A DNA stretch of 9,230 nt from a virus (taxonomy: Duplodnaviria > Heunggongvirae > Uroviricota > Caudoviricetes): IMG/VR virus record IMGVR_UViG_2582580966_000002. One strand, given 5' to 3'. Position 1 is the first letter of the stretch; the number at the start of each line of letters is the position of its first letter. The position numbers and the translations under genes are program-made. The notes beneath the pieces are model-generated. The model saw only the letters and a list, made by a program, of their open reading frames with translations, was not told where the DNA came from and made no database searches. This document shows positions 1 through 9,230 of the stretch, piece by piece.

Positions 1-12
1 CCATGACCTCCT

Positions 13-1296
13 CTATGATATGCGCTGAAATAATCCTGCCTGTCTGATACCCGGAGATGATGTCCATAGCATCGGACCACATGCACGCCACGTGCCCGGT
101 AAACGGGTCTCCCCCACATTACCGGAAGCAACCAGGGGAGTACCATCCGAAAGGCAACATGCAGACAGTGATGAGCCGGCAATGGCTGAGCCCGGTGCCA
201 TATCCCCCGAATAACTCGTCGCATAATATGCCGCAAGGACAAAAGAACCGACACCAAACAGTCCGCTGTCAGGACTTCCTGACGGTCCCTGAGGTCCTGC
301 CGGACCTGCGGCTCCCGTATCTCCTTTTGGCCCCTGAGGCCCTGCCTGACCTGCGGCTCCCGTATCCCCTTTTGGCCCCTGTGGTCCTGCCGGGCCTGCA
401 GCTCCCGTATCTCCCTTTGGCCCCTGAGGTCCTGCCGGACCTGCGGCTCCCGTATCTCCTTTTGGCCCCTGAGGTCCTGCCGGACCTGCGGCTCCCGTAT
501 CTCCTTTTGGCCCCTGAGGTCCTGCCGGGCCTGCAGCTCCCGTATCTCCCTTTGGCCCCTGAGGTCCTGCCGGACCTGCGGCTCCCGTATCTCCTTTTGG
601 CCCCTGAGGCCCTGCCTGACCTGCGGCTCCCGTATCCCCTTTTGGCCCCTGAGGCCCTGCCGGGCCTGCGGCTCCCGTATCCCCTTTTGGCCCCTGAAGC
701 CCTGCCGGGCCTGTATCCCCCTTGTCGCCCTTCGGTCCCAGTGGTCCGCCCGGATCGCCCTGCTCACCTTTCGGACCTGTATCCCCCTTATCGCCCTTGT
801 CACCTTTATCCCCTTTCGGCCCCGGTGGCCCTGCCGGGCCTGTATCGCCCTTGTCCCCCTTCTGTCCCTGTGGACCAGTTGCTCCGGTGTCGCCTTTCAG
901 TCCCTGTGGCCCCACGGCAGTTTCGGCTTTCTCAGCAGCTTCTCGCGCCCTGCGCACAGCCTCATCCGCCGCCGCTTCCAGCTTCTTCAGTGCATCAGGA
1001 TAATACGCTGCATCCGTTTCACGGAGCAGAAAGGCATTCAGGGTGCCCGGTTCGTCGTCGGCCATGACATCAATCTCGCCGGCGCATGCCGGCTGACGAC
1101 CTTCCACGCACAAGGTCACACGATAACGCCCCGGCTCAACCTGCATGCTGTAACTGCCCGTTTCGCCTGGCTGGTGCTCTGCCACCGTGGTGACTATCAC
1201 CGTCTCACTCGTTCGCGTGGCTTTCAGCTCTATGGTGCAGTCCGGTACCGGTTTTCCTGTACCATCCTTCAGCACACCTGAAATCTGTACTGACAT
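13..1296 (-). CDS. stf: Side tail fibre protein: lambda Stf-like N-terminal domain (~110 aa), collagen-like Gly-X-Y repeat region (~210 aa), short C-terminal domain (~90 aa)
   Basis: The N-terminus [43 protein letters not shown]... resembles lambda Stf ([26 protein letters not shown]...). It is followed by uninterrupted GXY triplets ([15 protein letters not shown]...). ATG at 1296-1294 verified; stop TAG at 13-15. Confidence 0.8.
286..690. repeat. Tandem array of nine 45-bp repeats (consensus cccctgaggtcctgccggacctgcggctcccgtatctccttttgg), each encoding a 15-aa collagen-like unit of the tail fibre
   Basis: Copies at 286, 331, 376, 421, 466, 511, 556, 601 and 646, read directly from the sequence. 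Copies 4, 5 and 7 are identical; copy 2 equals copy 8; copies 3 and 6 differ from each other by one base. More degenerate 9-bp Gly-X-Y periodicity continues to about 910. Confidence 0.95.
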
Positions 1297-2069
1297 ATTC
1301 CCCCCACAAAAAAGCCCACCAGAACCGGCGGGCTGTCATAACTCTGTGTTACCTGGCTATGGTAGTTCACCGTCATCTGCTGACCACCAAACTGCTCCGC
1401 ATCCACCTGCATCCCCACAATGGCCGTGTTCGGGTAGCACTGTTTCACATCGATGATTTCGGTGTATGACGACCACAGCGTTCTGTTCTGCAGCTGGTCC
1501 GTGGTGCTGTCCGCCGTCTCCCTGACCATCCGGATGTTAAAGGGGCGGGGAGGCAGATTATCCAGAATCACCGAGGCCAGGAACTGTGAGGTGGTCTTGC
1601 CGTTAATGGTGACATCCTTTTCTGTCACCCAGTTACCGTTACGCTGTAACTGAATCAGCAGACGGACAGAGGACGGATTACGGTCACCCTTTGACGTGGT
1701 CTCCACCAGTGACTGCACCCCGAAGGTCACCCGCAGGCGGTCAATGTTCGCTGACGTAATGGTGCGTGTTACCGGTTTTGCCCTGGTCACTTCGACACCC
1801 AGTACAGTTTCAGAGCCGGAGGACTCAAAGCCTTCCGGTGGTGTCTGCTCCTGCTCCCCGGCACGCCAGACCGCGGTCACACCGTGTATCACGGGATTAC
1901 CGTCCGTGTCCGTCAGCGGGGTTTTGTTCACCAGAATACTCTGCAGGCTTTTCACCGGGCCTTCTATCGGTCCCTCACCAATCGCATCAATCACGCTCAT
2001 CATCTGCGTGGATTTGAGATTGTCTTTCGCCTCACGAGGCGTGTGTGCCTTACCGCCACCTTTTCCCAT
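1269..2069 (-). pseudogene. J: Tail tip / host-specificity protein gpJ, N-terminal fragment only (~237 native codons of ~1130), then 29 codons of non-J sequence
   Basis: MGKGGGKAHTPREAKDNLKSTQMMSVIDAIGEGPIEGP...NLPPRPFNIRM...CYPNTAIVGMQVDAEQFGGQQ matches the lambda gpJ N-terminus. The remaining reading frame crosses the stf terminator and start codon and stops at 1269-1271. The ATG at 2069 is preceded by GGGAAGG. Confidence 0.85.
1308..1334 (-). terminator. Intrinsic terminator immediately upstream of the stf start (minus-strand stem AGCCCGCC/GGTGGGCT, loop GGTTCT, T6 tract)
   Basis: Minus-strand sequence agcccgccggttctggtgggctttttt read off the reverse complement of 1308-1334. The stem is 8 bp including one G-U pair. 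It is followed by GTGGGGGGAAT and the stf ATG. Confidence 0.55.
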
Positions 2070-2412: not shown

Positions 2413-3042
2413 TTACCCCTGCCGCCCGATAACCACGACCTTTCCGCCCCCGCCTTCATCACGGGTGCTGATGTCCTGGGATATACGGCGGGAGCCAACC
2501 AGCATTTCCCCGTAAGGCACCGGCATCGGGTTCCCCTGGGCAATCATGTTATCCAGCGAGGAAAAGTACGTGTTCTGTCTGCCGTTATCCGTTGCGCGGT
2601 AATCCGGTGTTTTTGCCTTCGGGGCCAGCATCTGGGCCACACCGCCCAGTATCATGCTGGCACCCAGTGAAAACAGCATCGTGGTGGCAGAAAAACCACC
2701 GGCACTCAGGGCTGTACCCCATAACGCCATCGAGCCTCCGGCCGTGAAGAAAGAGCCCACGATGGCTGCCGCCCCCAACACAATCTGCAGTCCACCCTTT
2801 CCGGCCCCGGCCAGTCGCGGCACAATGTGGATGACCGTTCCCTCACCCAGCTGTTCGTGAAGGCGGGCGTACACCACCTCCGGTGCCGTGTCTTCACCGG
2901 CAATACGTATCTGGTACCAGCCTTCGTTCATCTGAAGGCGAAAGCCCGGCATCTGCATCGACAGGGCGCGAATGGCTTCCGCTGCCGTGTTCACATACAG
3001 GCTGAGGCGGCGGCCAAATCGTTGTAAATCCCCGTGGTTGCC
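2413..3042 (-). pseudogene. I: Tail assembly protein gpI lacking its native N-terminus (~20 codons) and start codon
   Basis: ORF 2413..3078: ...GDLQRFGRRLSLYVNTAAEAIRAL...QNTYFSSLDNMIAQGN...GGGKVVVIGRQG matches lambda gpI from about residue 21 to the end. The first 15 residues of the track ORF (MMVEAVISGSTVGNH) are FII DNA in another frame. Confidence 0.85.
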
Positions 3043-6555: not shown

Positions 6556-7708
6556 TCTTCTCCTCCTCTGTTGATTGTCGCAGTCCGGATTCAAATGCCG
6601 CAGCCGCCCAGGCGGGCGGTTTAAGACCGGCTGCACGGCGCTCCATCGTTTCACGGACCTGCTGGGCAAAAATTTCCTGATAGTCGTCACCGCGTTTTGC
6701 GCACTCTTTCTCGTAGGTACTCAGTCCGGCTTCTATCAGCATCACCGCTTCCTGTACTTCTTTCAGACCATCGATGGCCATACGACCGGAGCCTATCCAG
6801 TCACAGTTCCCCCAGGCGCTGCGGGCTTCCTGAAAGCTGAAACGCGCTTTTGAAGGTAACGTCACCACGCGGCGAACGATGGCCTCTTCCAGCCAGCACA
6901 GAAACATCTGGCTCGCCTGACGGGATGCGACGAATTTTCGCCGCCCCATAAAGTACGCCCACGACTCGTTCGCACTGGCCCGTGCCGTGGAATAGCTCAT
7001 CTGGGCGTAATTCCGGGAAAGCTGCTCATACGAGACACCCAGCCCGGCAGCGATATACCGCAACAGTGACTGCTCAAACACGGAGTAGCCGTTATCCGTA
7101 TCCTGAGCCGTCTGCAGGTTCAGTGAGTCACCCGGCATCAGGTGCGGCACTTTTGCGCCTCCCAGCCGAACCGGTGCTGCGGCGTAATACGCGGCAATTT
7201 CACCAATCCAGCCGGTCAGCTTGTCCCGCTGCTCCTGACTGTTCGCGCCCAGAATAAAATCCATCGCTGACTGCGTATCCAGCTCACTCTCAATGGTGGC
7301 GGCATACATCGCCTTCACAATGGCGCTCTGCAGCTGCGTGTTCTGCAGCGTGTCGAGCATCTTCATCTGCTCCATCACGCTGTAAAACACATTTGCACCG
7401 CGGGTCTGCCCGTCCTCCACGGGTTCAAAAACGTGAATGAACGAGGCGCGCCCGCCGGGTAACTCACGGGGTATCCATGTCCATTTCTGCGGCATCCAGC
7501 CAGGATAGCCGTCCTCGCTGACGTAATATCCCAGCGCCGCACCGCTGTCATTAATCTGCACACCGGCACGGCAGTTCCGGCTGTCGCCGGTATTGTTCGG
7601 GTTGCTGATGCGCTTCGGGCTGACCATCCGGAACTGTGTCCGGAAAAGCCACGACGGACTGGTATCCCAGGTGGCCTGAACGAACAGTTCACCGTTAAAG
7701 GCGTGCAT
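6536..7708 (-). pseudogene. B: Portal protein gpB, N-terminally truncated (~140 codons missing; remnant begins at MHAFNGELFVQATWDT)
   Basis: ORF 6536..7732 (the track start is a TTG; first ATG at 7708-7706). The protein from MHAFNGELFV to ...STEEEKSDSRAA matches the C-terminal ~390 residues of lambda gpB (533 aa). It lacks its own start region and ribosome-binding site, and lies in the same frame as A immediately after the A stop codon. Confidence 0.85.
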
Positions 7709-7751
7709 GCAGTGCCGCACGGGCAGCGGCAAGTTCTTCCTGTCGCGTCAT
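7695..7751 (-). pseudogene. W: Head-tail joining gene W remnant: first 15 codons only ([15 protein letters not shown]), then 3 foreign codons and TAA
   Basis: Hand translation of the minus strand from ATG 7751-7749 gives [18 protein letters not shown]-stop. The first 15 residues equal the lambda gpW N-terminus ([21 protein letters not shown]...); sequence after codon 15 is B-derived, read out of frame. Confidence 0.8.
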
Positions 7752-9230
7752 TCATCCTCTCCGGATAAGGCACGGGCGTAATCTGCCAGTGTTTTCTTGT
7801 TGGTTGCTGCACCATCCTCTTCCTTCAGGCTCGCCAGCAGTGCACTGAGATCCAGCTGCCAGCGGGAAATACTGATGCGCAGCGCCGCCAGCGCATAAAC
7901 GAAGCAGTCGAGCGCCTCATTGCGTCGTTTTTTGCTGTCCCACAGTATTTTTTTCCTGCCATCCACCCATTTTTCGACCTGCTCTTCAGCCGTCAGCTGC
8001 TGCGCTTCGGTCAGATCAAAAATATCCGGGTTATTCGGGAAGTGAACGGCACCGGGAAGCGGTTCATCCCCTTCCGGCGTCAGTGTGAAGCGGTTATAAA
8101 TCTGCTCTTTCGCGGTATCCGTACCGATTTCGGTAAGGTAAACCCCGTTTTTGTTTCGCTTACGTGGCATGCTGGCCACCGGCTTTCCGTAGACGGATGC
8201 CCCTTTAATGGGGATCCCCCGGAACAGCCCATGTTTTTTCGAGCGTTCATACACGATGGTCGGGTCAATCCCGCCAGTATCCCAGCAGATACGGGATACC
8301 GACATTTCTGCACCATTCCGGCGGGTATAGGTTTTATTGATGGCCTCATCCACACGCAGCAGCGTCTGTTCATCGTCGTGGCGGCCCATAATAATCTGCC
8401 GATCAATCAGCCAGCTTTCCTCACCCGGCCCCCATCCCCATACGCGCATTTCGTAGCGATCCAGCTGGGAGTCGATACCGGCGGTCAGGTAAGCCACACG
8501 GTCAGGAACGGGCGCTGAATAATGCTCTTTCCGCTCTGCCATCACTTCAGCATCCGGACGTTCGCCAATTTTCGCCTCCCACGTCTCACCGAGCGTGGTG
8601 TTTACGAAGGTTTTACGTTTTCCCGTATCCCCTTTCGTTTTCATCCAGTCTTTGACAATCTGCACCCAGGTGGTGAACGGGCTGTACGCTGTCCAGATGT
8701 GAAAGGTCACACTGTCAGGTGGCTCAATCTCTTCACCGGATGACGAAAACCAGAGAATGCCATCACGGGTCCAGATCCCGGTCTTTTCGCAGATATAACG
8801 GGCATCAGTAAAGTCCAGCTCCTGCTGGCAGATGACGCAGGCATTATGCTCGCAGAGATAAAACACGCTGGAGGGGTCATCCGGCGTCCATTTGAGGCCA
8901 AACGGCGTCTCTTTGTCGCCAAATTTAAGATACTGCTCCTCCCCGCAGTGCGGGCAGGCAACATGAAAACGCATAAAATGCGGGGATTCACTGGCTGCAC
9001 GCTCAATCTGGCAGGTGCCTCTCACTTTGGGCGTGGAGCCACGGATGGACTTTGGCCAGACCGAGCCTTCAATACGCTTATCGCCCAGGAACGTCGGAGA
9101 GCCTTCCTGTTCAATATCCTCATCAAAGGCAGCAAGTTCATCATACCCCGCCACATCCACTGACTTTTCACGGTAGTTTTTTGCCGCTTTACCGCCCAGG
9201 CACCAGAAGCCACGACCATTGGAAAAACGC
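7748..9230 (-). CDS. A: Terminase large subunit gpA, 3' portion (N-terminal ~150 codons lie beyond the window edge)
   Basis: ORF 7748..9160 and its open upstream extension to the window edge (frame hand-translated to ...RFSNGRGFWCLGGKAAKNYREKS before the GTG at 9160). The C-terminus ...KKTLADYARALSGEDE matches lambda gpA as I recall it. Stop TGA at 7748-7750 overlaps the W ATG (7749-7751) as in lambda. Confidence 0.9.
   Translation of the reverse strand, partial: RFSNGRGFWCLGGKAAKNYREKSVDVAGYDELAAFDEDIEQEGSPTFLGDKRIEGSVWPKSIRGSTPKVRGTCQIERAASESPHFMRFHVACPHCGEEQYLKFGDKETPFGLKWTPDDPSSVFYLCEHNACVICQQELDFTDARYICEKTGIWTRDGILWFSSSGEEIEPPDSVTFHIWTAYSPFTTWVQIVKDWMKTKGDTGKRKTFVNTTLGETWEAKIGERPDAEVMAERKEHYSAPVPDRVAYLTAGIDSQLDRYEMRVWGWGPGEESWLIDRQIIMGRHDDEQTLLRVDEAINKTYTRRNGAEMSVSRICWDTGGIDPTIVYERSKKHGLFRGIPIKGASVYGKPVASMPRKRNKNGVYLTEIGTDTAKEQIYNRFTLTPEGDEPLPGAVHFPNNPDIFDLTEAQQLTAEEQVEKWVDGRKKILWDSKKRRNEALDCFVYALAALRISISRWQLDLSALLASLKEEDGAATNKKTLADYARALSGEDE

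Follow-up and report, generated by a model that had tools for sequence, protein, structure and literature searches.

The closest described relatives of the fibre reported here are the EPclP proteins of Ghosh et al. (2012, PLoS One 7:e37872, PMC3368898), which occupy the fibre position of lambdoid prophages and begin with a PfN domain (PF08400). In types A, B and D a PCoil domain of 88 to 116 aa lies between PfN and the collagen domain Col, and PCoil is often absent in type C. A PfC domain (PF06820) defines types A and B, and the C-termini of types C and D are unrelated to PfC (PMC3368898). For EPclA, both the trimer and the triple helix have been shown experimentally by AUC, MALLS, CD and EM, and collagen lengths differ between EPclP copies in multiples of three residues (PMC3368898).

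A second related system is the side tail fibre Stf of Ur-lambda (PDB 9e7m; Yu et al. 2025, PMC12617516), where 12 copies of the N-terminal domain form a collar at the gpV-gpM junction that feeds four trimeric fibres. These fibres speed or extend adsorption, which we count as a likeness to the fibre described below, and their gene follows J and lom. More distant parallels are the antireceptors of Streptococcus thermophilus phages and ORF8 of the Sputnik and Guarani virophages, which likewise carry in-frame tandem Gly-X-Y repeats in an attachment protein. In S. thermophilus phages the collagen repeats separate exchangeable domains (PMC5601072), and in Guarani ORF8 the spontaneous loss of an 81-nt repeat accompanied a change in host range (PMC7242381). 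These proteins and their hosts are unrelated to ours, and their units are shorter (27 nt in Guarani compared with 45 bp here).

We examined a collagen-like fibre gene in a stretch of 9,230 bp (hereafter the window), which is the whole of draft contig JMGU01000151.1 of NCBI assembly GCA_000687025.1. The ORF list and the translation place the gene on the minus strand, which corrects the strand in a preliminary description of this DNA. The features of the gene are as follows.

13..1296, minus strand: intact side-tail-fibre gene, 427 aa plus a stop codon at 13-15 (ORF list, translation, Pfam, PHROG)
913..1296, minus strand: PfN / Stf collar domain and short helical neck, aa 1-128 (PF08400, PDB 9e7m_Ta)
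271..912, minus strand: collagen-like Gly-X-Y region, aa 129-342 (PF01391, triplet count)
748..750, minus strand: extra glycine, aa 183, within GDPGGPLG (aa 180-187), a G-X-P-G-G-P-X-G interruption
16..270, minus strand: C-terminal non-collagen domain, aa 343-427 (85 aa), with conserved GTW...LFxRI
287..713, no strand assigned: 45-bp tandem array, nine close copies and the start of a tenth (TRF, unit tables, shuffle control, exact repeats)

The identification as a tail fibre had been made from the letters alone, and database searches bore it out. The N-terminal part, aa 1-127, scored 139 bits with PF08400 (cut-off 26.6; E 1.1e-40), the collagen triple-helix model PF01391 matched at E 9e-33, and the top PHROG families were all tail-fibre families, including phrog_366, tail fiber protein, at E 3e-91. 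In a phmmer search aa 1-91 matched the collar domain of Ur-lambda Stf (PDB 9e7m chain Ta, E 8.6e-28). Thus both domains proposed earlier, the collagen repeats and the Stf-type collar, are present. The Gly-X-Y region was described at first as the central third of the protein and as uninterrupted; the Gly-X-Y character stands, whereas its extent is half of the protein (214 of 427 residues), made up of 18 triplets, the extra glycine and then 53 triplets, 71 triplets in total. Every orthologue examined has this interruption. The X position is occupied by proline in 49% of triplets and by aspartate or glutamate in 28%, and the Y position by lysine (27%), alanine (28%), glutamine (18%), threonine (20%) and proline (4%).

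Collagen-like sequence also occurs in bacterial surface adhesins of the Scl or Lcl kind, and the NCBIfam models for Lcl, SclA and SclB did match the protein with E-values from 3e-73 to 5e-35. These matches, however, cover the Gly-X-Y region only, and their scores fall far under the curated cut-offs (247 against 500, 133 against 400 and 121 against 325 bits). The protein begins with a phage collar domain, a homologue of which has been solved on the lambda tail; the gene sits past J and lom at the prophage end, and the C-terminus is of fibre type, the translation showing no LPXTG-type anchor. We consider it highly improbable that the gene encodes an adhesin and not a phage part.

Several features tie the protein to the EPclP family. 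In addition to the PfN N-terminus, the fibre shares with EPclP the G-X-P-G-G-P-X-G interruption, here GDPGGPLG, the motif GPQ-GPK-GD (published as GP(Q/P)-GPK-G(D/E)) and the residue preferences at X and Y. It also shares the fibre position in a lambdoid prophage and differences in collagen length from copy to copy. The Gly-X-Y region begins at aa 129, directly behind the PF08400 match, with no PCoil between them, which rules out types A, B and D and agrees with type C. PfC is likewise absent, consistent with types C and D. A fibre of E. coli O104:H4 that does contain PCoil carries this C-terminal domain too, at 93% identity, in keeping with the 'EPclC*' architecture that PMC3368898 gives for the related strain 55989. 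By its architecture and this O104:H4 relative, rather than by direct comparison with published EPclC sequences, the fibre is closest to the EPclC type. RefSeq calls the fibre gene of E. coli O104:H4 2011C-3493 (our locus L040) an incomplete pseudogene; one frame is still uninterrupted there and reads PfN, PCoil, Col and the C-terminal domain found in the window's fibre.

There are also differences from the described proteins. EPclC has two collagen domains split by a globular insert, whereas the fibre in the window has one long, interrupted domain (54 + 159 residues). At 214 residues this domain is longer than that of any EPcl protein in the tables of PMC3368898 except the Stx2-86 one (322 residues). 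The shaft of lambda Stf consists of coiled-coil and gp37-like segments with Pf2 repeats, whereas here the shaft is collagen-like and a Pfam search of the fibre gave no match to the Pf2 model PF03406. Finally, the gene next to lambda stf encodes the chaperone Tfa, and the gene next to the fibre here is a DUF4376 gene.

The C-terminal domain is presumed to serve for trimerisation and for distal contact with a receptor or a partner. Its monomer model is of medium confidence (pLDDT 73), and the structural matches to that model are predicted structures and not solved ones. The last 89 residues gave no Pfam match even at E <= 10, and NCBIfam likewise had none for the last 85. A tblastn search of 50,697 phage records with the domain matched nothing, a word-indexed protein search returned 5 fragments only, and phmmer over 1.84 billion representatives returned only 8 matches, mostly fragments or low-complexity sequence. 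A scan of genome contigs gave one weak and irrelevant match in Chloroflexota. The exact 427-aa protein is absent from a table of 15 billion clustered proteins.

We then analysed the repeat itself. TRF reported a single tandem array in the window at 287-713, with a period of 45 bp, 9.5 copies, 93% matches, no indels and a score of 721. The consensus unit, allowing at most 3 mismatches, matched 8 times in the window and not once in 200 dinucleotide-preserving shuffles. On the plus strand the units start at a(287), b(332), c(377), a(422), a(467), c'(512), a(557), b(602) and b'(647), which is exactly the order first proposed, and a partial, diverged tenth unit begins at 692. The units c and c' differ by 1 nt, and b and b' by 2 nt. 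In codon register the unit encodes [13 protein letters not shown](P/Q)A, the full unit being [15 protein letters not shown]. The higher-order copy structure claimed for the array proved real, with exact internal repeats of 95 bp (287-381 = 557-651, offset 270), 92 bp (383-474 = 518-609, offset 135) and 68 bp (offset 45).

Two further claims needed adjustment. Copy identity had been put at 90 to 100 percent; relative to the commonest unit it is 91-100%, and some pairs are lower, b and c being about 84% identical. The array had been given as 286-910, but only 287-713 is built of 45-bp units. The remainder, 714-912, is degenerate Gly-X-Y coding with a weak 9-bp periodicity in TRF, and it is older than the array.

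The preliminary description had singled out the preserved reading frame of the array as its point of interest, and here we disagree. A unit of 45 bp is 15 codons, or five Gly-X-Y triplets, so that changes by whole units keep the frame. In addition, an open frame across the array means little because five of the six frames are stop-free there. The same property disposes of an apparent antisense gene at 57..1067 on the plus strand (336 aa), which we rejected as a mere consequence of the repeat; this frame is predicted by a gene caller as well, as 328 aa with no Pfam match. We likewise rejected phase variation, or on-off contingency switching, since in-frame units cannot turn the gene off.

The fibre length had been predicted to vary between isolates, and it does. 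In nine complete E. coli genomes the orthologues are 352, 367, 382, 397, 397, 412, 415, 427 and 442 aa long, with steps of 15 aa, and they hold 5-11 units between the interruption and the terminal GPQGPSGSP. The 427-aa allele, equal in length to that of the window, belongs to the complete genome 14EC001. Some of the varying alleles are nearly identical outside the array. Between L005 and L008 the two flanks show 99.8% and 100% identity, and the arrays measure 495 and 315 bp, a difference of 180 bp or 4 units. Between L009 and L010 flank identity is 99.6% and 100%, and the arrays, at 270 and 225 bp, differ by 45 bp or 1 unit.

The closest comparison comes from three sister contigs in IMG/VR (L013, L014 and L017), which share the deletion junction between a J remnant and the fibre gene that is found in the window. 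These contigs carry 8, 9 and 11 units compared with 10 in the window. All of them agree with it at 100% over the 124 nt upstream and over the 549-nt N-flank, and the flank of about 2.3-2.4 kb holds at most 2 mismatches. Written in codon register, the arrays are ABCDEFFEGD (the window, 10 units), HBCDEFEFEGD (11), HBCDEFEGD (9) and ABCIFEGD (8). From the 9-unit form the others are one step away, by the gain of F, by the gain of EF, or by the loss of one unit with the formation of I. Unit I, in L014, matches D at its 5' end and E at its 3' end, with D-specific and E-specific bases 15 nt apart, and is the product expected from an unequal crossover. We conclude that the variation by whole units is real and that the locus is an in-frame coding VNTR, the unit being a multiple of three and the copy number polymorphic between near-identical alleles. 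The pattern of alleles suggests that units change through unequal recombination or slippage.

Five further IMG/VR contigs (L015, L016, L018, L019 and L020) carry a related fibre with an N-terminus 7 aa longer and a C-terminal domain 99% identical, in forms of 464, 404 and 357 aa. In the 464-aa form the units run 8-6-9-10-8-6-9-10-11-12, a higher-order duplication of four units (180 bp). This four-unit duplication occurs among the relatives L015, L016 and L018.

The number of units in this particular window is a separate matter, and the early warning that an assembly could collapse the repeat was apt. All four assemblies of the remnant prophage are drafts, so some of the copy-number difference between them could be assembler noise. 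Reads of 100 nt could not settle the copy count because of the exact repeats of 92-95 bp in the array, and the adjacent F-F pair, as reckoned from the unit sequences, needs reads of at least about 116 nt to confirm it. The sister drafts with near-identical flanks differ mainly in their number of E and F units, which form the looping part of an assembly graph. Moreover, three protein clusters (P0121, P0122 and P0123) hold 122 'partial' phage tail or collagen-like database proteins that start inside the array and end in this C-terminal domain, indicating that draft assemblies commonly break in the repeat. These observations raise the possibility that the gene is real and the copy number and unit order of the window are an artefact, one of several paths through the repeat. 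Against this, whole-unit variation is also seen between near-identical alleles of complete, mostly long-read genomes. In addition, the chimeric unit I joins bases only 15 nt apart and must occur in reads at the usual k-mer sizes, and an allele of equal length occurs in a complete genome. We regard an artefact in the window as possible, though doubtful, and treat the exact copy number there as unverified.

We next consider the surroundings of the gene, which has lost much of its prophage. The features that border it are as follows.

1..12, minus strand: ribosome-binding site (AGGAGG, 7-12) and start codon (4..2) of the downstream DUF4376 gene (sequence, gene order of relatives)
1313..1334, minus strand: terminator-like hairpin, 9-bp stem and T run, 17 nt upstream of the fibre start codon
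1335..2069, minus strand: remnant of the tail-tip gene J, aa 1-250 of about 1158 (tblastn; PF24801; E. coli matches split at 1358/1359)

In nine complete E. coli genomes the gene order is J, lom, fibre, DUF4376 gene and prophage end. In the window, tblastn found the J remnant directly upstream of the fibre and lom deleted, and homology to intact loci stops at position 1359. We assessed the state of the prophage by searching the window (tblastn) with proteins from L011 (E. coli PV0838), a relative that is more complete. Three internal deletions were found. At about 1335-1359 the sequence passes from J aa 250 to the end of lom; at 2995-3035 FII aa 110 is joined to a point about 41 bp before gene I, with the tail-tube, tape-measure and tip genes Z, U, V, G, T, H, M, L and K absent; and at 7708-7751 W and portal aa 1-143 are missing. 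The genes C, D, E and FI are intact. None of the 5,426 complete E. coli genomes searched matched the window over its full length; the best matches span 82% of it and are without the fibre part. These results agree with the earlier view of a decayed prophage. We considered and rejected a frameshift in the large terminase gene, which simply runs off the contig end.

Some smaller features of the region were also recorded. Gene I diverges from the L011 reference past aa 180. Between the gene I stop and the J start lies an AT-rich spacer of 343 bp (2070-2412) with two hairpins and, at 2275-2302 on the plus strand, a strong promoter-like site (11/12 matches); the corresponding gap in the fuller relative is 235 bp. 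Rfam identified no RNA family in the window, this spacer included. Two copies of a 21-bp tandem repeat (8882-8923, 80% matches) inside the large terminase gene are probably chance or trivial.

Because the remnant prophage cannot build a tail, the collar domain is without a docking partner of its own, and no virion made by this prophage can carry the fibre. The coding sequence is nevertheless intact. The DUF4376 tail-fibre-associated gene downstream, cut by the contig end in the window, is complete at 202 aa in the sister contig L013 (2779-3387), and its product matches PF14301 (E 1e-16) and phrog_1141 (E 1e-79). Past this gene L013 carries a YkgJ-like gene and a separate phage-type integrase. 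Taken together, we conclude with considerable confidence that the gene encodes the presumably homotrimeric side fibre of a lambda-like siphophage, of the EPclP type and with an in-frame VNTR shaft, now orphaned in a remnant prophage. Most likely the gene was orphaned recently, is still intact and goes on gaining and losing units.

An intact gene in a prophage of this kind could also mean that the fibre is still in use, that is, expressed and supplied in trans to the virions or tail-like particles of co-resident lambdoid phages, with selection keeping the gene and the units diversifying adsorption. The open reading frame is intact and its N-flank identical in four assemblies despite three large deletions around it, and the DUF4376 partner gene is intact in L013. 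Many E. coli genomes hold several lambdoid prophages with a compatible PfN, with a median of 5 matching places among genomes with any match, and Ghosh et al. (PMC3368898) cite work showing that EHEC prophages, although defective, can be induced and interact among themselves. On the other hand, the terminator-like hairpin lies immediately upstream, at a position that corresponds to the lom-fibre intergenic spacer of intact relatives. No late promoter was found within the window, the late promoter region being outside it. Furthermore, with no more than 2 SNPs in about 2.3-2.4 kb, the deletions may be too recent for decay to be visible. We judge continued use in trans to be unlikely. Still more improbable, in our estimate, is the stronger proposal that the array is a hypermutable locus, with four alleles in four nearly clonal isolates, each a single unequal-crossover step away from a shared form, and that the orphan fibre and its DUF4376 partner are kept for supply in trans. 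If it were true, a 'dead' prophage would, by varying the length of its fibre, diversify the range over which live ones adsorb.

For the preferred reading, an orphaned EPclP-type fibre, homologues suggest how the protein would have worked in an intact phage. The N-terminal domain of 91 residues, homologous to the Ur-lambda collar, would dock as a collar round the tail tube / tail tip junction, probably the gpV/gpM junction as in Ur-lambda (PMC12617516). A short helical neck would then lead into a collagen triple helix, as expected by analogy with EPclA, acting as a stiff spacer. At about 0.288 nm per residue the shaft would be about 61 nm long in all, with about 4.3 nm for each unit. The C-terminal beta domain of 85 residues would trimerise the chains and make the distal contact, either with the host surface directly or with the product of the downstream DUF4376 gene.

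The 45-bp array encodes two-thirds of this shaft. Whole units would be gained or lost through unequal homologous recombination between them or through replication slippage. A change by whole units keeps both the frame and the glycine register, and the length of the fibre thus shifts in steps of 4.3 nm. In its present setting the orphan gene may be usable only as recombination material, or possibly as a part supplied in trans, for co-resident lambdoid phages. Infecting lambdoid phages are known to take up sequence from defective prophages, stf regions among it, through relaxed homologous recombination (PMC3945230).

The finding amounts to a further allele in a family already known, and its property is known as well, since variable collagen length is already published (PMC3368898). 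With family, architecture and variable length all in the literature, it holds little surprise for the specialist, and its main value is practical. Fast turnover of units causes draft assemblies to break or to be mis-sized at the array, so fibre length is not to be read from short-read data, and the array could serve as a high-resolution typing marker. For the biology of the family, our results indicate that collagen-type fibre genes in prophages of the E. coli/Shigella type are fast in-frame VNTRs, with copy number shifting while a flank of about 2.3-2.4 kb gains at most 2 SNPs. Hypothetically, a change in the shaft of about 4.3 nm per unit could tune the reach of the fibre through O-antigen or capsule.
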